From: Escherichia coli
Lineage (GTDB): Bacteria; Pseudomonadota; Gammaproteobacteria; Enterobacterales; Enterobacteriaceae
DNA: 64,000 nucleotides
Strand: one strand, 5' to 3'
Assembly: GCF_965641715.1 (NCBI RefSeq)
Contig: NZ_OZ282453.1
Positions within the stretch are counted from its first letter, which is position 1. Every line of letters begins with the position of its first letter. The notes below the pieces were generated by a model. It did no database searches. It had not been told where the DNA came from and worked only from the letters and a program-made list of their open reading frames with translations. The position numbers and the translations under genes were made by a program. Shown here one piece after another: positions 4,001 through 64,000 of the stretch.

Positions 4001-4691
4001 ACCACTCCTTTGAATGGAGACTTGACCGGGAGCTTTCAAGACTGGCGAGTTCATTGGCTATTTCAGGCTTTTCCGGGAGGATCAGCGCAATAAAAGGACG
4101 GCGAATTTTGGGTATTCCTGGCAGTGCGGCAATGAGTTTATCGGCACAACGCTGCCAGCAACTTTCCTCTGCCAGCGACAGATGCTTACGCAAACGGAGA
4201 TCGAAATCGTTATAGGTCGCGGAGCCATAACCGTAGCCATAGTCCTCGTCCTGATACTGCAATGTCACTACCAGAGGATCACTCTCATAACACCGCGCAA
4301 TAAACTGGCGTGCAATCACCACCTCAGTCGCATATTCCAGCCCCTCTTGTTGGACGATTTCGTCGAGCAACTGTTGGCTGTCATTTTGCGCGATACAGGC
4401 TAGCGCCGCCATTGTCCGGGCCGGGATTGAGGGTTTGTGTTCGCCGATCAAGTTGATGGCCTGCGTGATGGCGGACTGCCACTCCAGTGAAAAATTTTCA
4501 TAACGCCAGACAATGTTTTTTTTCTTCTCAGCTTTTTTTAGCAATTCATCACCCAGTGTCTGGATGAGGCTTTCAGTGATAACAGGCGCTGGTTCGCCCG
4601 GCCAATTGCGATGGCTGAGTGGTGTTTTACCCTTTTTATATTTCAGTTCCAGTTGGGCGTTATCAGCCAGCCACGGTAATTCCTTGTCCAT
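1059..4691 (-). CDS. yehI: Large uncharacterized protein (1210 aa), YehI-like, DUF4132-type C-terminal region
   Basis: Track ORF 1210 aa; paralogous to the two downstream giant ORFs (shared motifs WPGEP, RKHLSLAEE, LDFGPRQFTV, YEIMPPFRQL); lacks the N-terminal WGR-like domain. Confidence 0.7.
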   Translation of the reverse strand: MDKELPWLADNAQLELKYKKGKTPLSHRNWPGEPAPVITESLIQTLGDELLKKAEKKKNIVWRYENFSLEWQSAITQAINLIGEHKPSIPARTMAALACIAQNDSQQLLDEIVQQEGLEYATEVVIARQFIARCYESDPLVVTLQYQDEDYGYGYGSATYNDFDLRLRKHLSLAEESCWQRCADKLIAALPGIPKIRRPFIALILPEKPEIANELASLESSRSSLHSKEWLKVVATDNTAVKKLERYWGLDVFSDREASYMSQKNHFGYAACAALLREQGLAAIPRLAMYAHKEDCGSLLVQINHPQVIHTLLLVADKNKPSLQRVAKYSKNFPHATLAALAELLALKEPPARPGYPIIEDKKLPAQQKARDEYWRTLLQTLMASQPQLAEEVMQWLSTQARAVLNSYLLAPPKPVIDGTDNSNLPEILVSPPWRSKKKMTAPRLDLAPLELTPQVYWQPGEQEWLASTESARYFSTESLAERMEQKSGRVVLQELGFGDDVWLFLNYILPGKLDAARNSLIVQWHYYQGRVEEILNGWNSPEAQLAEQALRSGHIEALINIWENDNYSRYRPEKSVWNLYLLAQLPREMALTFWLRINEKKHLFAGEDYFLSILGLDALPGLMLAFLHRPKETFPLILNFGATELALPVARVWRRFAVQRDLARQWILHWPEHTATALIPLVFTKSSDNSEAALLALRLLYEQGHGELLQTVANRWQRTDVWPALEHLLKQGPMDIYPARIPKAPDFWHPAMWSRPRLITNNQPVTDDALEIIGEMLRFTQGGRFYSGLEQLKTFCQPQTLAAFAWDLFTAWQQAGAPAKDNWAFLALSLFGDESTARDLTTQILAWPQEGKSARAVIGLNILTLMNNDMALIQLHHVSQRAKSSSLRENAAEFLQVVAENRGLSQEELADRLVPTLGLDDPQALIFDFGPRQFTVRFDENLNPVIFDQQNVRQKSVPRLRADDDQLKAPEALARLKGLKKDATQVSKNLLPRLEAALRTTRRWSLADFHSLFVNHPFTRLVTQRLIWGVYPANEPRRLLNAFRVAAEGEFCNAQDEPIDLPADALIGIAHPLEMTAEMRSEFAQLFADYEIMPPFRQLSRRTVLLTPDESTSNSLTRWEGKSATVGQLMGMRYKGWESGYEDAFVYDLGEYRLVLKFSPGFNHYNVDSKALMSFRSLRVYRDNKSVTFAELDVFDLSEALSAPDVIFH

Positions 4692-41904: not shown

Positions 41905-42180
41905 ATGAGTATCCGTATCGAGATAAATCATCAGTATGTAGTTACAAGCGATCGCTACCAGTTCATTTTGCAGGAAAAGAAAGTGGCGACTGCTGGAAAA
42001 AATAAAGGTAGCGAATGGCTTGATACTGTCGGGTATTACCCGACGATTCAAAAACTGATTTCTGGTCTGGTACTACATGACCTTTTAAATGGCGGTGCTG
42101 ATAGTTTTGCGGCGTTGGGTGAGCAGGTCGAGCAGTTGGGACTGCAATGTCAGACCGCGTTTTGTGCTGATGGCCGTTGA
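41905..42180 (+). CDS. Small early ORF (91 aa), hypothetical
   Basis: Track ORF. Confidence 0.4.
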   Translation: MSIRIEINHQYVVTSDRYQFILQEKKVATAGKNKGSEWLDTVGYYPTIQKLISGLVLHDLLNGGADSFAALGEQVEQLGLQCQTAFCADGR

Positions 42181-44461
42181 GACTCGGGGGCGTATTGCCC
42201 CCTCGCTAGCCCTGCCAATATCTAAGCGCACCGGCGATACTTTCGTTGGTGCTTATCCCTGGAATGCTCCCCGCGCTGCCATTGGCCGTGACAGACCCCT
42301 TACACGTGCCGAATTCCGTCAGGTGCAAGGTGTTTTATACCGGATTGACCGCCTGCCTTTCTTTCTTAAGACGTTGTTTACTTCCCGTTATAACTTCATT
42401 CGTCGCACAAAGAGCCCGCCCGGGGCGCTCTATTTCCTGAAAAACACCTTTGAGCGGAAGCTGTTGCCGCGTCTTGAGCGCGTTAACGAGCTGTGCGGGA
42501 TGAATGAATCTGCGTCGATTGGTTTCTTGTCTGAGCGTGACGAATATGCGCGCTTGCCTGATATGAATGACAAAGAGCTGAAAAAATTTGCGGCCAGAAT
42601 TGCCGCGCAGCTCTGGCGTAAATACGAGGAACTCAGCGACGAATGGGCTGAGGCATTCGGCGGTAAAGAGACCCTTTTCACCGATGAGGCGCAGGTGCAC
42701 ATATATGGTCAGGTGGCTGGTGTTGCACGCGCGTTCAACTTAACCCCGCTCTACTGGAAAAAATACCGTAAGGGTCAGATGACGATCCGCATGGCGTTTT
42801 CCGCTATTTCCCGTCTGATAAAAGATGATTGGTGGGTTAACCAGCTCAAGGCGCAGCGTATGCGCTGGCGCGAGGCGCTGCTTATCGCTGCCGGTGAAGT
42901 CAACAAAGACCGTTCACCTTACGCCAGCAAAATGGCGATCCGCGAGGTTCACTCGCGCCGGCTGGCTAATCTCGAATACCTGAAATCCTGTGAGCTGGAA
43001 AACAAAGTTACCGGCGAACGTATCGACCTCATCAGTAAAGTCATGGGGAGTATTTCAAACCCTGAAATACGCCGTATGGAGCTGATGAACACCATTGCCG
43101 GAATTGAACGCTATGCGGCCAGCGTTGGTGATGTGGGAATGTTTATCACGCTGACCACGCCGTCGAAGTATCACCCGACCCGACAGGTCGGCAAAGGTGA
43201 CAGCAAAACGGTGCAGCTCAATCACGGCTGGAACGAAACCGCATTCACCCCTAAAAACGGCCAGCGCTATCTGTGCCGAATCTGGAGCCTGATGCGTACC
43301 GCTTTCAAAGATAACGATTTGGAAGTGTATGGGATGCGCGTTGTCGAGCCGCACCACGACGGCACGCCACACTGGCATATGATGCTTTTTTGCAAACTCA
43401 GTCAGCGTAAAGCTATCAACGAAATTATGCGTCGTTATGCCCTCAAAGAGGACGGACACGAAAAGGGCGCGGCAAAACAGCGCTTTGAGTCGCGTCACCT
43501 TAATCAGGGGGGCGCGGCGGGTTATATCGCCAAATACATTGCCAAAAATATCGACGGCTACGCGCTTGACGGTCAGCTCGATCACGATACCGGCAAATCT
43601 CTGAAAGATACGGCCGCAGCCGTAACCGCATGGGCGTCTACATGGCGTATCCCTCAGTTTAAACCGATTGGCCTCCCGACAATGGGCGCTTACCGCGAAC
43701 TGCGTAAGCTGCCGCGCGGGGTGAGTATCGCCAGCGAGTTTGACGACCGTGTCGAGGCCGTCCGGGCTGCTGCAGATGAGGGGGAATTTGACCTGTACAT
43801 CAGCGCGCAGGGTGGGGCAAACATGCCGCGTGATGCTCAGGCGGTCAGGGTCGCCCGTAAGGTGACGGATGAGGTAAACGAATACGAGGAGGATATCGAG
43901 AAAGTGGTCGGTATTTATGCCCCTCATCTTGGGGTGAGCCGCGTACATGTAACCCGTACAGCGGAATGGCGCATAGTTCCAAAGGTTTTGGCCGTTGAGC
44001 CTTTGACCTTAAAAAGCGGCTCTGCCGCGCCTCGGAGTCCTGTCAATAACTGTGGAAAGCTTGCCGACGGTGGCGATCCAGTTATGACACCTACACCGTC
44101 TGAGCAAGCCGCAGCGGTGTTAAATCTGATTGAGGCCGGGGTTATCGGCTGGAATGAGCCAGACGTCATGAAGGTTCTTAACGGCGCGTTAAAAGCTGGC
44201 GCACCTCGCAATAATCGCCAGCAAAGAAGCAATGCGCCACTCAAAACGAGCGAGCAAGCTCCATCAGCCAGGATGACAACACCAGAAAGGGATCGCGTGG
44301 CGAAAATTCGTTTCGATTTGGCTCAGGAGGGCATTACCCCAGAACGGTGGGCGCTCGAAGCGCTGGCGCGTGGGGCAACGGTGATTTATGGCGATAAAAA
44401 AATCAAATACGCGGCTGCTGATGAGTGGCCGGGATTCTCAATTCAAGAGGAGCAGAATTAA
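42170..44461 (+). CDS. A: Replication initiation endonuclease A (rolling-circle Rep)
   Basis: About 763 aa from MAVETRGRIAPSLALPISKRTGDTFVGAYPW; HUH-like motif (HHDGTPHWHMMLF) and active-site Tyr region (AGYIAKYIAKNIDGY). Confidence 0.9.
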   Translation: MAVETRGRIAPSLALPISKRTGDTFVGAYPWNAPRAAIGRDRPLTRAEFRQVQGVLYRIDRLPFFLKTLFTSRYNFIRRTKSPPGALYFLKNTFERKLLPRLERVNELCGMNESASIGFLSERDEYARLPDMNDKELKKFAARIAAQLWRKYEELSDEWAEAFGGKETLFTDEAQVHIYGQVAGVARAFNLTPLYWKKYRKGQMTIRMAFSAISRLIKDDWWVNQLKAQRMRWREALLIAAGEVNKDRSPYASKMAIREVHSRRLANLEYLKSCELENKVTGERIDLISKVMGSISNPEIRRMELMNTIAGIERYAASVGDVGMFITLTTPSKYHPTRQVGKGDSKTVQLNHGWNETAFTPKNGQRYLCRIWSLMRTAFKDNDLEVYGMRVVEPHHDGTPHWHMMLFCKLSQRKAINEIMRRYALKEDGHEKGAAKQRFESRHLNQGGAAGYIAKYIAKNIDGYALDGQLDHDTGKSLKDTAAAVTAWASTWRIPQFKPIGLPTMGAYRELRKLPRGVSIASEFDDRVEAVRAAADEGEFDLYISAQGGANMPRDAQAVRVARKVTDEVNEYEEDIEKVVGIYAPHLGVSRVHVTRTAEWRIVPKVLAVEPLTLKSGSAAPRSPVNNCGKLADGGDPVMTPTPSEQAAAVLNLIEAGVIGWNEPDVMKVLNGALKAGAPRNNRQQRSNAPLKTSEQAPSARMTTPERDRVAKIRFDLAQEGITPERWALEALARGATVIYGDKKIKYAAADEWPGFSIQEEQN

Positions 44462-45443: not shown

Positions 45444-45462
45444 GGCGAGGCGGGGTAAGCGT
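45444..45462. other. Candidate cos (cohesive-end) site
   Basis: Seen: GGCGAGGCGGGGTAAGCGT; the first 12 nt match the P2/186 cohesive end GGCGAGGCGGGGAAAGCAC as I recall it; sits in a GC-rich, structured non-coding stretch. Confidence 0.5.
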
Positions 45463-45533
45463 TGCGCGCGCCTGTCAAAGATATTAAGATTGTCTCAAAA
45501 TCGATTGATTTTATTGAACTAATGGAGCTAGGA

Positions 45534-47090
45534 ATGATTAAGGGTATAGGTCTTCAAAACTTCAGGAGCTTTGTCAACAAAACGTTTATTGATTTAAAAC
45601 CAATTACAGTATTTGTTGGTAAGAACAGCAGTGGTAAAAGTTCCCTATTGCGCACATTTCCTTTACTTCGTCAATCTGTAGAAGAAAATACTACTGGCCC
45701 AATACTATGGTATGGGAGATATGTGGATTTTGGCGATTTTACAGATGTACTTTCCCGAAACTCTGAAAAAAAAGAAATTACGTTTAGTTTTTCACTCTCA
45801 ATTCCGCCAGAGGTTTCACAAAGATATACATATTATCGTTCTACTGATTTAGCAAAGCAACCAACAGATATTGAAGCAGAGTTAACTGTTTACTCTAAAG
45901 ATAAAAAAACAAAAACGAAAACGATTAAGCTTATATTGGCTGATTTAACAATATTTATTTCAATGGATGAGAGTAGTAATGTTAAATTACTCATTGAATC
46001 AGATGATAAAACAATAGAGCGTGATGGGATAATAGCTAAAAATCTTGGGCAGTTCATACCAAATCTAATTTTGAAGGGTAAGGAAGACAGTCCTCCTCCA
46101 AGCACATCATTCTATTTGAGACATTCTAGGCATGACAGGGCGTTAGAATTGTCATTTATTGATTCAGCGGCGAAATATATAAAGAAATATTTCCATACTA
46201 AATCTGATATAAATCAAGTGACAGAGGCATTCAAAAGAATTGGCTTTATACCCAAAGCGTACGCTAGTAAATTAGTTGCTTTTCTATTTAAGGAACAAAA
46301 AGTTTTTAGTAGAAACTTTGAATTTCAACATGATGAAATAATGAATGAGTTATATCCATTTATAATTGGATGGAATATTAATAATCTTATAGATATAATA
46401 AATACATCCTTGTCAGATTCATTCAGAAATGTAAAGTACATAGCTCCACTGCGTGCTACATCAGAAAGATTTTATCGTTTTCAAGATTTACAGGTTAATG
46501 AGATAGATCATACTGGTTCCAATCTTGCAATGCTTTTGAATTCATTAAGACCGGCTGATAAATCAAAATTTGAAGATTGGACAAAGTTAAATTTTGATTT
46601 CATTATCAAGGTTGAACAAAGTGGCTCTCACTTTGCAATTTTAATAAACACCGGTGAAAATAGTGAGAACTATAATGTTAGTGATATGGGGTTTGGTTAT
46701 TCTCAGGTTTTGCCGATAGTTACAGCCATTTGGCTTGAGACAGAACGTCGTGCTACCACGGTTAGAAAACCTATAACATTTATCATTGAGCAGCCAGAAT
46801 TGCATTTACATCCGTCATATCAGCATAATTTAGCAAGTATTTTTGCAAAAGTAGTAACTAAAGCAAAAGAAAATAATGTAGATTTGAAGATAATTTTTGA
46901 GACACATAGCCAGACCATGATTGAAGCACTTGGTGAATATATTGAGGAAAATGAAAGTCTTTCACAGGATGATATTTCAATACTGGTATTTGAAAAAGAT
47001 GATAAGCAGCAGACTATAGTTAAGAAATCTTATTTTGACGAGAATGGTTTCCTAAAAAATTGGCCGGTTGGCTTTTTCTCGGGTAAGTAG
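45534..47090 (+). CDS. Cargo gene 1: ABC/OLD-type (AAA_15/AAA_21-like) ATPase, about 518 aa
   Basis: Walker A GKNSSGKSS; Walker B/D-loop FIIEQPELHLHP; H-loop-like IFETHS; AT-rich; SD GGAG upstream of the ATG chosen at MIKGIGLQNFRSF. Confidence 0.75.
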   Translation: MIKGIGLQNFRSFVNKTFIDLKPITVFVGKNSSGKSSLLRTFPLLRQSVEENTTGPILWYGRYVDFGDFTDVLSRNSEKKEITFSFSLSIPPEVSQRYTYYRSTDLAKQPTDIEAELTVYSKDKKTKTKTIKLILADLTIFISMDESSNVKLLIESDDKTIERDGIIAKNLGQFIPNLILKGKEDSPPPSTSFYLRHSRHDRALELSFIDSAAKYIKKYFHTKSDINQVTEAFKRIGFIPKAYASKLVAFLFKEQKVFSRNFEFQHDEIMNELYPFIIGWNINNLIDIINTSLSDSFRNVKYIAPLRATSERFYRFQDLQVNEIDHTGSNLAMLLNSLRPADKSKFEDWTKLNFDFIIKVEQSGSHFAILINTGENSENYNVSDMGFGYSQVLPIVTAIWLETERRATTVRKPITFIIEQPELHLHPSYQHNLASIFAKVVTKAKENNVDLKIIFETHSQTMIEALGEYIEENESLSQDDISILVFEKDDKQQTIVKKSYFDENGFLKNWPVGFFSGK

Positions 47091-47092
47091 TT

Positions 47093-48205
47093 ATGTTGAT
47101 TAATATCGAAAATGCGACACCTGAGAAGGTGCTAAATAACTCATTTGCCATAGCGGTTGAAAATATACTTCGGGCATTCGCTGAACAAAAACACTTGGTT
47201 ATAGGGGCAAGGGTTTTTTTTAAAACTATTATCAATGATCAAAGCGGGCTTTATAGCCTTTCATCAAAAAGTTACGCGCAAGAGGCTTTGTCGGGTCTAA
47301 CAGAGTACTATGCTATCTTGGATCAGGTCTCATTTTATGTATCTGTCGACTTTAATATTAGTGATAAATCATTTAAATGGGTTCAGATCGGTGAATCTTT
47401 TAAATTTGTTTGTGGTCCATTGTATTTTAATGACTCGGCACAATTGCAAAAAACGAAAATAGTATGTGAAAATCCTTTGGATTCTGATTTTTTTAAGGTT
47501 ATAGCGGCTCATTATGCCGAAGGTATTAACTTATCTCGCTGCGAAATGGGTTTTATCGCTCTAAATGGCGGTGGGGGCAGTACTAAGGATATATTCGAGC
47601 GTGCAATTCAAAATAATGAGATAGTTTTTTGTATTGTGGATAATGACAAAAAACATCCTGGAGCCCCATTCGGAGGTACTTGCTCACATTTTTTGGGCTC
47701 ACAAATTACTCGCTCAGGTTTCGTGGAGATTTTAGATGTACATGAAATAGAATCTCTAGTTCCTTTATCGACAATTGAAGATGTATTAAGAAGTCAAAGT
47801 CAATTGCAACAAAAAGAAAAATCTCTCATTTTCTTTAAGCATCTTTGCTCCGTAGATGAATCAGTAAAATTTTATATTGACCATAAAAAAGGTTTTGATT
47901 TTAAAACAGCCCTTGAACTCGATCGAAAACATGGTGCATATTGGCGTCCGATATTAAAGAAGCTTGATATAAAATATGATTGTGAGTATATCGAATCAAA
48001 ACGTTGTAGCTGCAACGCTGCTTGTGTAAGTTATGATGGTTTTGGAGAGAATTTGCTCAGCAATACATTGAAATATATACAAAAGGGAAGTTTAAAAAAA
48101 TATAATCCTCACCTAACACCAGTGCTTTCTGATAAATGGTATAAGTTAGGTAAGAATTTCTTTAGTTGGAGTTGTGGTCCATATAAAAAAGCAAGGGTTG
48201 GTTAA
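47093..48205 (+). CDS. Cargo gene 2: 370-aa partner protein, possible TOPRIM/DUF4435-like effector with C-terminal Cys cluster
   Basis: ATG 2 nt after the cargo-1 stop; hydrophobic strand plus DxD (IVFCIVDNDKKHPG); CEYIESKRCSCNAAC cluster; AT-rich. Confidence 0.65.
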   Translation: MLINIENATPEKVLNNSFAIAVENILRAFAEQKHLVIGARVFFKTIINDQSGLYSLSSKSYAQEALSGLTEYYAILDQVSFYVSVDFNISDKSFKWVQIGESFKFVCGPLYFNDSAQLQKTKIVCENPLDSDFFKVIAAHYAEGINLSRCEMGFIALNGGGGSTKDIFERAIQNNEIVFCIVDNDKKHPGAPFGGTCSHFLGSQITRSGFVEILDVHEIESLVPLSTIEDVLRSQSQLQQKEKSLIFFKHLCSVDESVKFYIDHKKGFDFKTALELDRKHGAYWRPILKKLDIKYDCEYIESKRCSCNAACVSYDGFGENLLSNTLKYIQKGSLKKYNPHLTPVLSDKWYKLGKNFFSWSCGPYKKARVG

Positions 48206-56486: not shown

Positions 56487-56946
56487 ATTTAAACCTTTTG
56501 ATGACAAGCTTGCGGGGTTGATTGCGGCAATATCACCGGCGGGTAGGCGTAAGCTGGCCGCTGAAATAGCAAAGCAACTGCGCAGATCGCAACAGCAACG
56601 CATCAAACAGCAAATTGCGCCTGATGGCACGCCGTATCAGGCTCGTAAGCGCCAGCCGCTCAGGGCAAAATCGGGGCGAATCAAAAGGTCGATGTTCCAG
56701 AAATTGCGAACCAGTCGCTACATGAAAGCCAGTGGCCGCAATGATGCCGCCGTGGTGGAGTTTACCGGCAAAGTGCAACGCATCGCCCAGATTCATCAGC
56801 TCGGACTCAAAGACCGGCCAAACCCTCATGCTCAGGACGTGCAATACCCGGAACGCCAGTTACTCGGATTTAGCATGACTGATAAGGAGTTGATTGAACT
56901 GTTAATTAACATGCATTTCAGAAAAAATACTGTGGCTGAATGCTGA
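56479..56946 (+). CDS. S: Tail completion protein S
   Basis: 155 aa; position. Confidence 0.75.
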   Translation: MNEFKPFDDKLAGLIAAISPAGRRKLAAEIAKQLRRSQQQRIKQQIAPDGTPYQARKRQPLRAKSGRIKRSMFQKLRTSRYMKASGRNDAAVVEFTGKVQRIAQIHQLGLKDRPNPHAQDVQYPERQLLGFSMTDKELIELLINMHFRKNTVAEC

Positions 56947-57038
56947 GAGTCCTAAGAAAATAGAGAAAGCAGATATTATACAAAAAAGATAATATCTGCT
57001 GCTGGGTCGATATTTGAATGTATTTATTTAATCTATTG

Positions 57039-57791
57039 CTAACGTTCGAATATTATTATCACCCCAAGAGTGAGATGTATATGATCTTCTATTTGTTCAT
57101 ATTCTTCTTGGGTGTAAGAAAGTTTAGCTAATTCTTCTGTTGCTGAAAAGACATCAATGGATACTTGGACGCCTGATGGGATTTCATTTTTTATTTCATT
57201 AATGTATTTGTTGTATTTTCTTGTGATTAGTATTATTGCGCGATCTCTGTCGACGGTGGTTGAGCAATATCGATTGGATTTGCTGTTGTTATTGTGGAAT
57301 GATTCGAATGCGCAATTGAGGGCAAGTCTTAGATTTGATGATCCTGTATTTCCAGTGTGATTGAAGTATTCTATGTTTCTTCTTAAGTCTTCAAATAGTT
57401 TTGCCTTATTTGGATTGTCCCCTTTAACTTCAATAGCACATTTTGGATAATCAAACCCATTATTATTGCCTAGTATGGCAATGTCTATCCTACCTTTTCT
57501 GGTTGTGTTTGCTTTGATTCTTAGTATTTGCCTTGAAAATATTTTCCCCGGCGTTAGTCTTTTTGAAAATGGCACCGTTGAAGTTATAAAATCCCCTGTA
57601 TCATATTCAAAAATTATTTTCTCATCATCTATGTGAAAATTTTTACTATCAAGTAGGGCTTTGCCTATTGATACAGTAGCGACGTATTCGGTATTGATTT
57701 TACCACCAGAACTGAAATTCATTAAACGTGTGATTTTAGCTGCATTGGACATGCCATCCTTTACTGCTGTGATTATTTCGTAATTGTCCAT
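57039..57791 (-). CDS. Cargo gene (moron), 250 aa, candidate PD-(D/E)xK-fold nuclease
   Basis: Opposite strand to the late genes; AT-rich; motif RIDIAILG...CAIEVKGD (D...E-x-K). Confidence 0.6.
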   Translation of the reverse strand: MDNYEIITAVKDGMSNAAKITRLMNFSSGGKINTEYVATVSIGKALLDSKNFHIDDEKIIFEYDTGDFITSTVPFSKRLTPGKIFSRQILRIKANTTRKGRIDIAILGNNNGFDYPKCAIEVKGDNPNKAKLFEDLRRNIEYFNHTGNTGSSNLRLALNCAFESFHNNNSKSNRYCSTTVDRDRAIILITRKYNKYINEIKNEIPSGVQVSIDVFSATEELAKLSYTQEEYEQIEDHIHLTLGVIIIFER

Positions 57792-58109
57792 ATTATTTAC
57801 TCAGGTAACTGTTTTATTTTGATTGTTCTTACTGGATGTTTTATAAGTATAATAATTTGGATTATGCTAATCAACTAGTCTTCTTTCGGCTTTTACTAAT
57901 GACTCATTTATGAATGATAATGTTATGATTCCAGCAACCGAAGTGGGTATTTTTTTGCACCCAAGTGATCGTTTTGTGGAACTAATATGAGTCTATAAGT
58001 ATCCCTATTTCACTAGTAGGTTGAGACGTCACACTTGCTGGCTGTTGTTTCATGCCCCACAAAACTCAGCTCAATTGTCGCTGGCCTCACTAGGCGGCAT
58101 CCTTTCCCC

Positions 58110-58751
58110 ATGAATACTTTAAATTCCATTCAGGATATCGCCCGAGCGATCCGAAACCTTATCCGCACCGGCATTGTGACTGCAGTCAATCCCGATGAGG
58201 GGCTTTGTCGTGTCCAGACCGGCGGCATGCAAACCACCTGGCTAAACTGGCTGACCTGCCGCGCCGGTCGCTCGCGTGTCTGGTGGGCTCCCTCGGTTGG
58301 CGAGCAGGTGCTTATTCTTGCCATTGGTGGCGAGCTTGACACCGCCTTTGTGCTGCCTGGTATTTTCTCTGATGACCATCCCGCGCCGTCGACCTCGCCC
58401 GATGCGTTTCACGTCACTTTTCCTGACGGGGCGGTTATCGAGTACGAGCCCGAAAACGGGGCGCTCACCGTGTCCGGTATCAAAACTGCCGACGTTACCG
58501 CATCGGAGTCCATCACCGCCACCGTGCCGGTGGTGCTGGTTAAGGCATCGACCTGCATCACCCTCGATACACCCGAGGTGGTGTGTACCAACAAGCTGAC
58601 AACCGGCACGCTCGAAGTGAAAAAAGGCGGGACGATGTCGGGGAACATCGAGCACACCGGCGGGAAATTTACCTCGAACGGCGTGCAGGTCGATGACCAC
58701 GACCACGGCGGCGTGAAGCGGGGCGATGACAGAACGGTGGGGACACAATGA
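58110..58751 (+). CDS. V: Baseplate spike/assembly protein V
   Basis: About 213 aa from MNTLNSIQDIARAIRNL. Confidence 0.85.
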   Translation: MNTLNSIQDIARAIRNLIRTGIVTAVNPDEGLCRVQTGGMQTTWLNWLTCRAGRSRVWWAPSVGEQVLILAIGGELDTAFVLPGIFSDDHPAPSTSPDAFHVTFPDGAVIEYEPENGALTVSGIKTADVTASESITATVPVVLVKASTCITLDTPEVVCTNKLTTGTLEVKKGGTMSGNIEHTGGKFTSNGVQVDDHDHGGVKRGDDRTVGTQ

Positions 58752-59098
58752 TGGTGCGTTATCTGGGAATGAACAGCCACACCGGTCTCAGTATTTCTGA
58801 GGTGGAACACATCAGGCAAAGCGTGCGCGACATTCTGGTCACGCCGGTGGGCTCGCGGGTCATGCGTCGGGAATATGGCTCGCTACTGTCTGCACTGATT
58901 GACCAGCCGCAGACCCCGGCGCTGCGCCTGCAGATTATGGCCGCGTGCTACTCGGCTATCCAGAAGTGGGAACCGCGCGTCAGTTTGTCGACCATCGCCT
59001 TTGAACGCGGAGAGGATGACGGAGCGATGTACGTCGATATGACCGGCACGCGTTCGGCATCAGGCCAGCCTTTTTCTATCACCCTTCCACTGAGTTAA
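58748..59098 (+). CDS. W: Baseplate protein W (GPW/gp25 family)
   Basis: 116 aa; position. Confidence 0.8.
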   Translation: MMVRYLGMNSHTGLSISEVEHIRQSVRDILVTPVGSRVMRREYGSLLSALIDQPQTPALRLQIMAACYSAIQKWEPRVSLSTIAFERGEDDGAMYVDMTGTRSASGQPFSITLPLS

Positions 59099-59103
59099 AC
59101 GTT

Positions 59104-60012
59104 ATGGCTATTGTTGACCTGAGCCAGCTCGCCGCACCTGATGTTGTGGAAGAGCTGGACTATGAAACCATCCTGACAGAGCGAAAGGCGACGCTCGTCT
59201 CGCTGTATCCCGAAGAGCAACAAGACGCGGTCGCGCGCACGCTGACGTTTGAATCAGAGCCGATCGTGAAACTGCTGCAGGAAAATGCTTATCGGGAGGT
59301 TATCTGGCGTCAGCGTGTCAATGAGTCGGCACGGGCGGTGATGCTGGCTTACGCTGCCGGTCATGACCTCGATAACCTTGGCGCAAATTACAACGTTGAA
59401 CGTCTCGTTATTACGCCTGCTGATGAAACCACGCTGCCGCCGACACCTGCTGTGATGGAGTCGGACACCGATTATCGCCTGCGTATTCAACAGGCTTTTG
59501 AGGGAATGAGTGTTGCCGGGTCGACCGGTGCGTATCAGTTTCATGGCCGCAGCGCTGACGGGCGGGTCGCCGATATTTCTGTTATCAGCCCGGAGCCTGC
59601 CTGCGTGACCGTGTCGGTGCTGTCCCGGGAGAATAACGGCGCGGCATCCGGGGAACTGCTCGCCGTGGTGCGTAATGCGCTGAACGATGAGGATGTGAGG
59701 CCGGTTGCTGACCGTGTGACCGTGCAGTCGGCGGTCATTGTCGACTACACCATTGATGCCGCGCTTTATCTTTATCCCGGCCCCGAAAGCGAGCCGGTGC
59801 TCAGTGCGGCAAAAGCGAAGCTGCAGACCTATATCAACGCGCAGCACCGGCTCGGGCGTGACATCCGCAAGTCTGCCATCTATGCAGCACTCCACGTTGA
59901 GGGCGTGCAGCGTGTCGAACTTGTCGCGCCGGTGGCTGACATCGTACTCAATGAGACGCAGGCGTCATATTGCACTGCGTACAGTGTAAATATCGGGGGC
60001 AACGATGAGTGA
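59104..60012 (+). CDS. J: Baseplate protein J
   Basis: 302 aa; position. Confidence 0.85.
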   Translation: MAIVDLSQLAAPDVVEELDYETILTERKATLVSLYPEEQQDAVARTLTFESEPIVKLLQENAYREVIWRQRVNESARAVMLAYAAGHDLDNLGANYNVERLVITPADETTLPPTPAVMESDTDYRLRIQQAFEGMSVAGSTGAYQFHGRSADGRVADISVISPEPACVTVSVLSRENNGAASGELLAVVRNALNDEDVRPVADRVTVQSAVIVDYTIDAALYLYPGPESEPVLSAAKAKLQTYINAQHRLGRDIRKSAIYAALHVEGVQRVELVAPVADIVLNETQASYCTAYSVNIGGNDE

Positions 60013-60535
60013 TACCCGTCTGCTGCCGGTGGGCTCGTCGCCGCTTGAGGTGGCGGCGGCGCGCGCCTGCGCGGATATCGAAAATACCCCTGTCCCGCTG
60101 CGTCGCCTCTGGAACCCTGACAACTGCCCCGCAAACCTGCTGCCGTGGCTGGCCTGGGCGTTTTCGGTTGATCGCTGGGATGAGAGCTGGCCGGAAGAAA
60201 CCAAACGCGAGGTTATCCGCAGCGCGTGGTTTATCCATGCGCACAAAGGGACGATAGGTGCGGTGCGTCGTGTGGTCGAGCCGCTCGGGTATCTGATTAA
60301 CGTGACGGAGTGGTGGGAGACGAACGACCCGCCGGGCACGTTTCGCCTTGATATCGGCGTGCTGGAGACCGGCATCACCGAGGAAATGTATTACGAAATG
60401 GAGAGGCTTATTGCTGATGCAAAGCCAGCCAGCCGCCATCTTATTGGCCTGAATATTATCCAGGACATACCGGGTTATCTCTTCACCGGAGCCCTGACCT
60501 ATGACGGCGACATCATCACGGTTTACCCCGGATAA
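60005..60535 (+). CDS. I: Baseplate/tail protein I
   Basis: 176 aa; position. Confidence 0.8.
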
Positions 60536-60546
60536 GTGAGAACACA

Positions 60547-62229
60547 ATGACAGTGAAATATAAAACCGTTATCACCCGAGCCGGTGCGGAAAAACTGGCG
60601 GCGGCGACGCTCCCGAACGGGAAAAAAGTCAATTTTGCGGTGATGGCCGTCGGGGACGGTGGCGGTAAGCTTCCCGAGCCGGACGCCAGTCAGACAAAAC
60701 TCGTCAATGAGGTCTGGCGTCATGCGCTGAACAAAATCTGCCTGGACAAAAAACATAAAAATTATGTCGTGGCGGAGCTGGTGATCCCCCCGGAGACCGG
60801 CGGTTTCTGGCTGCGTGAAATGGGGCTTTACGATGACACCGGCACGCTGATTGCGGTCGGCAATATGGCCGAAAGTTATAAGCCCGAACTGGCGGAAGGG
60901 TCAGGCCGCGCACAGACGCTGCGCATGGTGATCATGGTGAGCGATATCGACACCGTCGAGCTGTCCATCGATACAACACTGGTGATGGCGACGCAGGATT
61001 ATGTCGACGATAAACTCGCAGAGCATGAGCAGTCCCGTCGCCATCCTGACGCCACGCTGAAAGAAAAAGGGTTCACGCAGTTAAGCAGTGCGACCGACAG
61101 CACGTCTGAGGCGCTCGCCGCGACGCCGAAAGCGGTCAAAGTGGCGTATGACCTTGCGAAAGGTAAATACACGGCTCAGGACGCGACCACGGCGCAGAAA
61201 GGGATTGTCCAGCTCAGTAGCGCCACCGACAGCGTGTCTGAGACCCTCGCCGCGACGCCGAAAGCGGTTAAGGCGGCGAATGATAATGCTAATGGCCGCG
61301 TTCCTTCCTCGCGCAAAATTAACGGACATTCCCTGAATGCTGACATCAGTGTCACCTCGCAGGATATTTTCGACGGTCAGGCTATTGGGCTGGTAATGGA
61401 GGATTTAGATACCCTGAAAACGCCGGGTATTTACTTTCAGCCAGCGAACGCCAATACCTCAGCCGCCAGACATTACCCTGAAAATAACGCCGGGACGCTG
61501 GTCATTTATAAAAATGCCGGAGTGACTCAGGTATACCGGGTTTATAACAGCTCCCGGAGCTACTCGCGCAGCCAGTATTCAACAGGTGCATGGACACCGT
61601 GGACGCCTGATGATGTTTTTCCGGTAGGCGCGCCCGTTGCGTGGCCGTCTGACAGTGTTCCTGCTGGTTATGCCGTCATGCAGGGACAAACTTTTGATAA
61701 AGCCGCTTATCCGCTTCTTGCGGCTGTGTACCCATCGGGTGTTATTCCTGATATGCGGGGCTGGACAATCAAAGGTAAACCGGCCAGCGGTCGTGCAGTG
61801 CTTTCACAGGAACTGGATGGCATCAAGTCACATACTCACAGCGCAAGTGCATCAAATACAGACTTAGGTACTAAATCAAGCAGTGCATTTGATTACGGTA
61901 CTAAAACGGCCAGCACATTTGACTATGGTACTAAAACCACTAACAGCACCGGAGCGCATGCGCACGGTATTTCTGTTGGTAACACAGGCGCAGGTAATGG
62001 TATTTCAGCAGGTTACAACTCAGGGCTGGGCAATGGAACGACGGGGAGTGCAGGTGCGCACGCCCATACGGTCGGTATTGGCGCTCACAACCACACCGTT
62101 GGAATTGGTGCTCACAGTCATACTGTGGCAATAGGGGCTCACGGACATAACATCACTGTTAACGCAGCCGGTAACGCTGAAAACACCGTCAAAAACATCG
62201 CATTCAACTATATCGTGAGGCTTGCCTGA
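60547..62229 (+). CDS. H: Tail fiber protein H
   Basis: 560 aa; conserved N-terminus [20 protein letters not shown]; internal tandem repeat; divergent C-terminus. Confidence 0.85.
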
Positions 62230-62807
62230 TGACTTTCAAAATGACCGGGAAAAGCCGGACAATCACTGTTTATAACTATCGCGCAGATACCTGTGAATTT
62301 ATTGGAAAAGGTGACGCCCTGATCCCACCATTTACCGGACTCCCTGCCTGTTGTACCAGTGAAAAACCGCCAGAAACCAGCGCGGGATGTATTCCCGTTT
62401 ACGACACTGAAAGCGGACGATGGAACATCACTGAAGACCACAGGGGTGAGGTTGTCTATGACACTGAAACAGGTCATCAGATGGAGATAACCGAACCGGG
62501 TAAATATCCGACAGGGACAACAACCGCTGCACCTGAAAACCCGTGGCAAAAATGGAATGGTAAAGCATGGATTGATGATGCTGATGCAGAACGGAATGCA
62601 TTGACTGAGTCTGCGAAAAACAACAAAAGCATGCTTCTTAAGCAGGCCAATACTGCGGTTGCGACATTACAGGACGCTGTTGATCTGGAGATGGCAACCG
62701 AAGATGAAAAAGCACAGCTCGCGGCATGGAGGAAATACCGTGTTTTACTGAGCCGCATCCAGCCAGAGAATGCCCCGGATATTGAATGGCCGCCGCTGCC
62801 AGTCTGA
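62229..62807 (+). CDS. G: Tail fiber assembly chaperone G
   Basis: 192 aa; start overlaps the H stop. Confidence 0.75.
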   Translation: MTFKMTGKSRTITVYNYRADTCEFIGKGDALIPPFTGLPACCTSEKPPETSAGCIPVYDTESGRWNITEDHRGEVVYDTETGHQMEITEPGKYPTGTTTAAPENPWQKWNGKAWIDDADAERNALTESAKNNKSMLLKQANTAVATLQDAVDLEMATEDEKAQLAAWRKYRVLLSRIQPENAPDIEWPPLPV

Positions 62808-62941
62808 TCCGACATCCGGCGGGCAGTTGCCCGCCTTTTCCTTTCCCGTCGTTGTGCCAGACCTTAGCCAACCCTGACAAATAGCCCCTCATCACCACAC
62901 AACAGAAAATACACTCACCCCTTAACCACGGAGTTAAACGG

Positions 62942-64000
62942 ATGAGTGACTATCATCACGGCGTCGAGGTCATCGAGATTAACGATGGCGTGCGCACCAT
63001 TTCCACCGTTTCAACCGCCATTATCGGCATGGTCTGTACGGCCAGCGATGCTGACGAGAAAACATTTCCCCTCAATGAGCCGGTACTCATTACGAACGTG
63101 CAGAGTGCTATCGGTAAGGCTGGCAAAAAGGGCACGCTGTCGACGTCCCTGCAGGCTATCGCTGACCAGTGCAAACCTGTCATCGTGGCCGTGCGTGTGG
63201 CCGAAGGTATTGAAGATCCGGAGAACCCCGAAGCGGCGCACAAACAGACCATTTCCAATATCATCGGCACCACCGATGAAAACGGCAAATATACCGGGCT
63301 GAAAGCCCTGCTGACGGCGAAAACCGTCACCGGCGTTAAGCCACGGATTCTCGGCGTGCCGGGGCTGGATTCGCAGGAAGTGGCGACCGCGCTCGCGTCC
63401 ACCTGTCAGAGCCTGCGCGCCTTTGGCTATATCAGCGCGTGGGGCTGTAAAACCATTTCCGATGCCATCGACTACCGCGAGAATTTCAGCCAGCGTGAGC
63501 TGATGGTCATCTTCCCTGATTTTCTGGCATGGGACACCACGGCGAACGCGACCGCGACAACCTGGGCGACGGCGCGCGCACTCGGCCTGCGTGCCAAAAT
63601 CGACCAGACGGTCGGCTGGCATAAAACCCTGTCTAACGTTGGCGTTAACGGTGTGACCGGCGTCAGTGCCTCAGTATCGTGGGATTTGCAGGAACCGGCG
63701 ACCGACGCCAACCTGCTGAATCAGGCTGGTGTCACTACGCTTATCCGCAATGATGGTTTCAAATTTTGGGGAAACCGTACCTGCTCAGATGATCCGCTTT
63801 TCCTGTTTGAAAACTACACCCGCACCGCGCAGGTGCTGGCCGACACGATGGCGGAGGCGCACGCGTGGGCGATGGATAAACCCATTACCCCGACCCTCAT
63901 TCGCGATATCGTTTCCGGTATCAATGCCAAATTCCGCGAGCTGAAAACCAACGGTTATATCGTTGACGGCTTCTGCTGGTACGACCCGGAGTCGAACGAC
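62942..64000 (+). CDS. FI: Tail sheath protein FI (partial, runs off the window end)
   Basis: Translation MSDYHHGVEVIEINDGVRTISTVSTAIIGMVCTASDADEKTFPLNEPVLITNVQSAIGKAGKKGTL is P2 FI-like; frame open to position 64000. Confidence 0.85.
   Translation, partial: MSDYHHGVEVIEINDGVRTISTVSTAIIGMVCTASDADEKTFPLNEPVLITNVQSAIGKAGKKGTLSTSLQAIADQCKPVIVAVRVAEGIEDPENPEAAHKQTISNIIGTTDENGKYTGLKALLTAKTVTGVKPRILGVPGLDSQEVATALASTCQSLRAFGYISAWGCKTISDAIDYRENFSQRELMVIFPDFLAWDTTANATATTWATARALGLRAKIDQTVGWHKTLSNVGVNGVTGVSASVSWDLQEPATDANLLNQAGVTTLIRNDGFKFWGNRTCSDDPLFLFENYTRTAQVLADTMAEAHAWAMDKPITPTLIRDIVSGINAKFRELKTNGYIVDGFCWYDPESND

Follow-up and report, generated by a model that had tools for sequence, protein, structure and literature searches.

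A P2-like Escherichia coli prophage with a probable chimeric tail fiber: a P2-type proximal part joined to a T4 gp37/lambda Stf-type tip and its chaperone gene

Since the early 1990s, tail fibers have been known to be mosaic across P2, Mu, P1, lambda and the T-even phages. Haggard-Ljungquist et al. are said to have described, in 1992, the mosaic tail fibers that link these phages. Here we describe an apparently mosaic tail fiber gene located at positions 60547..62229 (+ strand) of a 64,000-nucleotide (nt) stretch of Escherichia coli DNA (NCBI RefSeq assembly GCF_965641715.1, contig NZ_OZ282453.1), the whole of which is referred to below as the window. The gene is an intact open reading frame (ORF) of 560 amino acids (aa) that begins with ATG, the same start being annotated by RefSeq in the closest E. 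coli prophage, and it occupies the position of P2 gene H. We put at roughly 0.9 the probability that it encodes the tail fiber of a P2-like (Peduoviridae) E. coli prophage composed of modules of differing ancestry.

Magaziner & Salmond (2022, PMC9659904) reported that more than 200 phage fibers share a tip of ~215 aa of the T4 gp37/lambda Stf type. In this family, to which the P2-like Salmonella phage SEN5 belongs, the fibers diverge in the region for receptor specificity, and the fiber gene is directly followed by a gp38/Tfa gene. The domain limits of T4 gp37 were given by Islam et al. (PMC6957217) as residues 811-881 plus 1010-1026 for the collar, 882-931 plus 960-1009 for the stem and 932-959 for the tip, and these were transferred to the window protein by pairwise alignment. 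The features of the fiber gene and of the gene that follows it are listed here in window coordinates.

60547..62229, + strand: tail fiber gene, probably chimeric, 560 aa (ORF, gene order, PHROG 295)
60547..60999, + strand: N-terminal domain of P2 type, aa 1-151 (PF12571 Phage_tail_fib, E 2.2e-55, full profile length)
61066..61295, + strand: two 'phage tail fibre repeat' copies, aa ~174-206 and ~218-250, 44 aa apart (PF03406, twice)
61366..61605, + strand: predicted knob domain, aa 274-353 (AlphaFold, profile search, Foldseek)
61618..61827, + strand: N-terminal part of the collar domain, aa 358-427, equivalent to T4 gp37 D10, residues 811-881 (PF07484, 2XGF alignment)
61828..61965, + strand: descending strand of the needle stem, aa 428-473, equivalent to T4 882-931 (HxH at 429 and 471; FDYGTK tandem repeat)
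61966..62040, + strand: tip subdomain, aa 474-498, equivalent to T4 932-959, predicted receptor-contacting loop (alignment, entropy)
62041..62175, + strand: ascending strand of the needle stem, aa 499-543 (four 9-aa GAHxH(T/N)(V/I) units)
62176..62226, + strand: C-terminal strand returning into the collar, aa 544-560, equivalent to T4 1010-1026 (alignment)
62229..62807, + strand: tail fiber assembly chaperone at the P2 G position, lambda Tfa type, 192 aa (PF02413 Caudo_TAP, E 1.6e-36)

The origin of the distal module (aa 357-560) was apparent from direct comparison. It matched the T4 gp37 needle (PDB 2XGF) by phmmer with an E value of 1.3e-72 and, as a profile of 51 sequences, with an E value of 2.4e-103, and it is 62.8% identical to T4 gp37 residues 813-1026, 62.7% identical to lambda orf-314 (distal Stf) and 79% identical to the Stf of the P1-like phage JL22. 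This C-terminal stretch of ~204 aa, 63% identical to both T4 gp37 and lambda Stf, shares with them the collar (PF07484 Collar, E 3e-10), the histidine-x-histidine (HxH) motifs and the C-terminus, which is near-identical to the C-termini of T4 gp37 and lambda orf-314. A first-pass annotation, based on the letters of the window, had suggested that the receptor-binding tip was swapped, and both this similarity and the exchange of the chaperone described below support the suggestion. The structure prediction that it had proposed for the C-terminal tip was run on aa 254-560 as a monomer with a 51-sequence alignment (mean predicted local distance difference test score, pLDDT, 61.9; predicted template modeling score, pTM, 0.33), and Foldseek ranked 2XGF first against the resulting model, but the model is confident for the putative knob only. 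Some differences from gp37 were also observed. The stem is ~4-5 residues shorter per strand in the window protein, its tip loop has fewer residues, many of them Gly and Asn, and the module is carried by a P2-type fiber of 560 aa as against 1026 aa in gp37 and 774 aa in Stf.

In T4 gp37, seven iron ions are found on the fiber axis, each held by the HxH motifs of three chains (PMC6957217, PMC6116203). The window protein contains six HxH motifs (aa 429, 471, 505, 514, 523 and 532) compared to seven in T4, where the motif at 915 is replaced in our protein by the second FDYGTK unit. The last four are spaced exactly 9 aa apart (aa 505-534), and six motifs were reached in 0/20,000 protein shuffles. 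It is these four 9-aa units that the first-pass annotation had picked out as imperfect VGIGAH-x-HT tandem repeats at the C-terminus, and the string that it quoted is present as written. Among the 51 homologues all six motifs are invariant or at least 90% conserved, with H429/H431 and H471/H473 being invariant, and the motifs of the ascending strand align to T4 motifs at 966-998. Between 5 and 8 HxH motifs are present in each of 96 related tips. At the DNA level the 27-nt units of the repeat are only 56-70% identical to each other, which indicates an old repeat kept at the protein level rather than a recent DNA duplication; Tandem Repeats Finder reported no repeat over the HxH region. We read the His repeats as the predicted HxH metal sites of a gp37-type needle stem and not as a receptor-binding surface. 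Their repetitive composition could also be that of a low-complexity or disordered, metal-scavenging tail, an explanation which, together with the idea that the shadow ORFs discussed below are real overlapping genes, we consider highly improbable: the His repeats match, position by position, residues that are ordered in a crystal structure, and their His positions are invariant across homologues.

A second repeat is found in the descending strand of the stem. It spans 61867-61937 and consists of 2.4 copies of a 30-nt (10-aa) unit with 80% matches, corresponding to the FDYGTK units. About 20% of the 96 aligned tips, including T4 gp37, are gapped across one such unit (aa 447-456). Gain and loss of the FDYGTK unit may be one way in which needle length changes.

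Sequence variability among the 96 tips is concentrated in a single segment. Column entropy reaches 2.5-2.8 bits at aa 477-496 (peak region 472-500) compared to 0.2-0.9 bits in the collar and stem, and the peak coincides with the T4 tip subdomain 932-959, so that variability is confined to the tip subdomain as in the T4/lambda tip family and divergence falls in the region expected for gp37/Stf-type fibers. As many as 62 distinct loop sequences were counted among the 96 tips. Of the 10 T4 tip residues found by alanine substitution to be essential for plaque formation, 7 align to identical residues in the window protein (H, H, I, N, G, G and Y); the skeleton of the loop is kept and its surface is changed. 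The loop between the His motifs, aa 474-498, is the predicted receptor-facing variable part. A similar pattern was seen in the comparison with the closest E. coli prophage, in which nucleotide identity is 96-100% in proximal H and the preceding gene I. It falls to 53-81% across 61735-62234 (lowest, 53%, at 61935-62034), is 77-89% over the chaperone gene and reaches 92-99% in the sheath gene. Judging from these alignments, the swap took place on two scales, involving everything past aa 253 relative to P2 and 186, and the stem, tip and chaperone relative to close relatives.

Among the sampled proteins, the closest tip loop (92% identical) belongs to a 524-aa P2-type E. coli fiber (P0072). Prediction of the receptor from the closest characterized tips, those of T4, lambda and phage NP, was dropped as their loops are too different. 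It is possible, though in our opinion rather doubtful, that the Gly/Asn-rich loop, carried on a six-layer needle and 72-92% shared with many uncharacterized E. coli prophage fibers, recognizes a receptor other than the OmpC/lipopolysaccharide (LPS) of T4 or the LPS GlcII of phage NP, and that the knob adds a second binding site, making the fiber bivalent as proposed for R-pyocin fibers. For the DNA of the tip plus chaperone (61700-62807), the highest match in 5,426 complete RefSeq E. coli genomes fell in the 80-90% identity band, and a recent donor was therefore not identified among them.

The gene directly downstream of the fiber gene changes type along with the tip. Its 192-aa product falls within the size range of the gp38/Tfa-type proteins (184-207 aa) encoded directly downstream of family members, and it is collinear with lambda Tfa over 192 aa (47% identity); identity is 49% to JL22 Tfa and 25% to T4 gp38. 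By contrast, P2 G matches aa 127-191 only (42% identity) and Mu U (5YVQ_B) matches aa 126-191 only. The last ~65 aa are 40-43% identical to the P2 and 186 proteins, whose N-terminal domain is unrelated. In the model of North et al. 2019, cited in PMC9608196, the variable N-domain of Tfa binds the cognate fiber and the conserved helical C-domain trimerizes, and a full-length match to lambda Tfa combined with a C-terminal-only match to P2 G and Mu U fits this model. Such chaperones are reported to remain part of the virion in Ur-lambda and Mu, but not in T4. The fiber stop and the chaperone start overlap by 1 nt (TGATG). The same 1-nt overlap is present in lambda, in which the Tfa gene likewise lies directly downstream of Stf, as well as in JL22 and the E. 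coli relative, and is absent in P2 and 186, in which the two genes are separated by a gap of 2-3 nt. Since the type of chaperone switches along with the tip, the two seem to have been swapped together.

In contrast to the distal module, the proximal part of the fiber is of P2 type. As in P2 gpH and 186 gpK with gpG, the gene and its chaperone occupy the same operon position, and aa 1-253 are 76-79% identical to the P2 and 186 proteins and contain PF12571 (aa 1-151) followed by both PF03406 repeats, the domain order of P2 gpH-type fibers. The duplicated unit reported by the first-pass annotation around residues 178-250 is real: QLSSATDS occurs at aa 178 and aa 222, the DNA contains direct repeat copies of 98 nt (61066-61163 and 61198-61295) that are 132 nt apart and 77% identical, and Pfam places two PF03406 repeats over the duplication (E 1.8e-37). 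However, P2 H and 186 K each carry both PF03406 copies at matching positions, and one copy aligns to the Mu tail fiber S in PDB 5YVQ. Between the window and P2, identity is 84% for copy A and 76% for copy B, and only 64% when window copy A is set against P2 copy B. Each window copy is closest to its own P2 counterpart, indicating that the duplication predates the split of P2, 186 and the window phage; concerted evolution of the copies was ruled out by the same values. The internal duplication belongs to the conserved P2/186/Mu-type proximal part of the fiber and is not a marker of the swap.

The first-pass annotation had also ascribed two long antisense shadow ORFs to the duplication. Two ORFs of 82 aa are indeed open over the repeat, yet only one of them (61081..61329) is antisense, the other (61088..61336) lying on the sense strand in another frame. 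Apart from being open, little speaks for them as real overlapping genes: neither 82-aa ORF has a family match, the stop-free spans over the repeat vary in length in P2 and 186, and shadow ORFs in neighboring genes are longer, up to 213 aa. Both ORFs mirror the duplication, and we take them to be a side effect of the repeat and of its G+C-rich codons.

The block conserved with P2 ends with the second PF03406 repeat. By BLASTP, P2 H aligned to aa 1-253 alone (75.9% identity), a P2 variant to aa 1-251 alone (78.5%) and 186 K to aa 1-256 alone (78.9%), with no alignment to these three proteins past aa 253, 251 and 256, respectively. A full-length collinear alignment with P2 H, which the first-pass annotation had named as the observation that would speak against a swap, does not exist. 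The window fiber (560 aa) is 109 aa shorter than P2 H (669 aa), as the annotation had stated, and 186 K has 462 aa. Many phage records similarly match query residues 1-251, 1-252 or 1-256 only, end points that suggest a clustering of breaks just past the second PF03406 repeat (aa ~251-256), whereas other relatives break elsewhere, such as Enterobacter phage ENT4 (aa 1-352) and FSLSP004 (aa 1-311). These differing break points depict the fiber as a string of exchangeable modules. The gene position and the first 253 residues shared with P2 H could in principle reflect vertical divergence of a whole-length P2 H orthologue in which the distal part has drifted beyond recognition with no exchange of modules. 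We find this very hard to reconcile with an identity that drops abruptly from 76-79% to undetectable at aa ~253, with a chaperone N-domain that also changes type, and with a distal part of 204 aa whose identity is 63% to both T4 gp37 and lambda Stf and 79% to the Stf of a P1-like phage, as drift is unable to yield high similarity to the fibers of unrelated phages.

In phage 186, a 'Mu-like inversion crossover site' (186 record 4300-4325) is annotated in gene K right after the second PF03406 repeat, and its location coincides with the end of the resemblance between the window and P2/186 (window ~61300-61330). This match in position points to the junction after the second repeat as a long-standing recombination boundary between constant and variable fiber parts. 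A crossover site annotated where homology to the window breaks, along with a hypervariable tip loop, could also point to a programmed host-range switch, either an invertible segment of the Mu G/P1 C type or a diversity-generating retroelement targeting the tip. We searched 58000-64000 with the annotated 186 site and with a Mu gix sequence, and the best match to either covered 16 of 26 bases, within the values of shuffled sequences (mean 15.6, up to 18). Moreover, the locus has a single cassette and no invertase, G being followed by a terminator and the sheath gene. As for a retroelement template, blastn of 61701-62229 against the 64-kb window found only itself; no separate search was made for a reverse transcriptase, and part of the prophage lies outside the window. 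A switch of either type is in our judgment most unlikely, and the reading of a module exchange downstream of the conserved repeat is retained.

Between the proximal part and the distal module, aa 274-353 form the sole high-confidence part of the AlphaFold monomer model (pLDDT 83-89). The profile of 51 homologues matched the R2 and R1 pyocin fibers (6CT8, 6CL6 and 6CL5) with E values of 6.9e-6 to 1.8e-4, with the hits falling on the part of the chain that Buth et al. (PMC6116203) define as Knob2. In R-type pyocin fibers such knobs are trimeric antiparallel beta-sheets of five or six strands. Foldseek gave E values of 2.8e-4 to 8.5e-4 for the knob against pyocin fibers, with low TM-scores since the rest of the model is poor. 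The likeness of aa ~274-353 to R1/R2 pyocin Knob2 is one of profile (E 7e-6) and predicted fold (Foldseek E 3e-4), sequence identity being just 21-24%. The putative knob of the window fiber would, like that of the pyocin fibers, be located proximal to a shaft with an HxH iron site, the site in the window fiber being predicted. On the other hand, the window fiber has a single putative knob and the R1/R2 pyocin fiber has two, and the distal end is a gp37-type needle in the former and a lectin-like foot in the R-pyocin fiber.

Together, these observations are consistent with the following model. The P2/186-type part (aa 1-253, with PF12571 and two PF03406 repeats) would join the fiber to the P2 baseplate, attachment probably being mediated by the domain at aa 1-151, and would be followed by the putative knob (aa 274-353) and by the collar, needle and tip module of T4 gp37/lambda Stf type (aa 357-560). 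By homology to the gp37 structure, three chains would run down and then back up to form a six-stranded needle. Metal ions (iron in T4) on the needle axis would pin it together, each bound by the HxH motifs of three chains, with six metal layers in the window protein compared to seven in T4. The loop at the far end (aa 474-498) would contact the cell-surface receptor. The lambda-Tfa-type protein encoded downstream would fold and trimerize the tip; its lambda-type N-terminal ~125 residues would be the fiber-specific part, and its C-terminal ~65 residues are of the type common to P2 G and Mu U. Metal binding, the trimeric needle fold and dependence on the chaperone are all predicted from homology. 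Tip and chaperone were probably gained as a single cassette by recombination downstream of the conserved repeat, and the tip loop would later have diversified or been re-exchanged, setting host range.

Several points weigh against parts of this reading. The knob assignment is based on moderate scores (profile E ~1e-5, Foldseek ~3e-4). The collar and needle are poorly modeled in the AlphaFold monomer (pLDDT 40-64), as expected of an intertwined trimer, and the fold of the needle is consequently predicted solely from sequence homology. On the descending strand, two HxH motifs are found as against three in T4, which makes the exact number and spacing of metal sites an extrapolation. Finally, the cassette occurs in P2-like, lambdoid, P1-like and T-even phages, and its transfer among them could have run in any direction and at any time.

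The surrounding gene content agrees with a P2-like prophage. The fiber protein matches PHROG 295 'tail fiber protein' (E 1e-229), and its gene lies within the gene order V-W-J-I-H-G as determined by Pfam matches on its neighbors (Phage_base_V, Baseplate_J, Tail_P2_I and Caudo_TAP). Upstream are genes for a baseplate spike (Phage_base_V/Phage_spike), a GPW/gp25 family protein (a label taken from the annotation of the closest E. coli prophage), Baseplate_J and Tail_P2_I, and downstream is the Caudo_TAP tail-fiber assembly gene. This late operon is collinear with the annotated loci of P2, 186 and the closest E. coli prophage, placing the fiber gene at the operon position of P2 gpH-type fibers, and the closest prophage is 92% identical over 6 kb. 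Genes for gpA, portal, terminase, capsid and lysis functions of the prophage were found upstream in the window, and the chromosome flanking the prophage is that of E. coli. The V-G operon is closed by the following feature, and a terminator is annotated at the equivalent position in phage 186.

62818..62845, + strand: terminator-like hairpin and T-run (GGCGGGC-AGTT-GCCCGCC, hairpin at 62818-62835, then TTTTCCTTTC)

The same combination of modules is found in other P2-like phages and prophages, among them the Salmonella phages STYP1, SEN1 and SEN4/5, Escherichia phage Chuche and E. coli prophages such as that of strain WP2-S18-ESBL-07, which have the same architecture with a Tfa gene downstream and differ mainly in the stem, tip and chaperone. 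Full-length collinear fibers are present in the Salmonella phages STYP1 (69%) and SEN1 (57.5%) and in Escherichia phage Chuche (68%), and the fiber of the closest E. coli prophage, WP_000216933.1, is 90.7% identical and likewise collinear over its full length. The exact sequence is already public: the identical fiber protein is deposited in NCBI as an E. coli 'phage tail protein' (36 contigs) and the identical chaperone as a 'tail fiber assembly protein' (37 contigs). The fiber is an ordinary member of the described tip family and an ordinary case of tail-fiber module shuffling. With the tip family catalogued in 2022, the finding opens no new question and its practical value is modest, but it documents a further case of tip and chaperone travelling together across phage families and places module boundaries at residue level (~aa 253, 274-353 and 357), with a 25-residue loop that most likely sets host range. 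Such boundaries could be useful for retargeting P2-type phages, P2/P4 transduction particles and R-type pyocins with gp37/Stf-type tips.

Putative cargo genes were observed elsewhere in the prophage. Where P2 has orf30, after the tail-completion genes and before V, there is a low-GC island (56800-58000, 32-36% compared to ~55-60% in the flanks). It contains an ORF (57039-57791, - strand) encoding a 250-aa homologue of P2 Tin (PADLOC Tin, E 5.6e-93), the P2 protein by which T-even phages are excluded. P2's own tin is located at the other cargo locus, beside old. At that P2 old/tin cargo position, between replication gene A (42089-44461) and the portal gene, two genes are found at 45462-48205 (+ strand). 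The first encodes a 542-aa ABC/OLD-type ATPase (AAA_15, AAA_21 and DUF3696) with PADLOC matches to NsnB (4.9e-55) and PDC-M55A (7.5e-46), and the product of the second (370 aa) matches no Pfam family and PDC-M55B only weakly (2e-4). The pair looks like a candidate two-gene anti-phage system.

In the chromosomal part of the window, the segment 20000-24000 (rcnA, rcnB, thiM, thiD and a fimbrial gene) reaches 97.7% identity in the best-matching complete E. coli genome, but in 3,985 of the 5,424 genomes with a match its identity is only 90-95%. Either this locus appears to be unusually divergent within E. coli or the host appears to come from a minority lineage.

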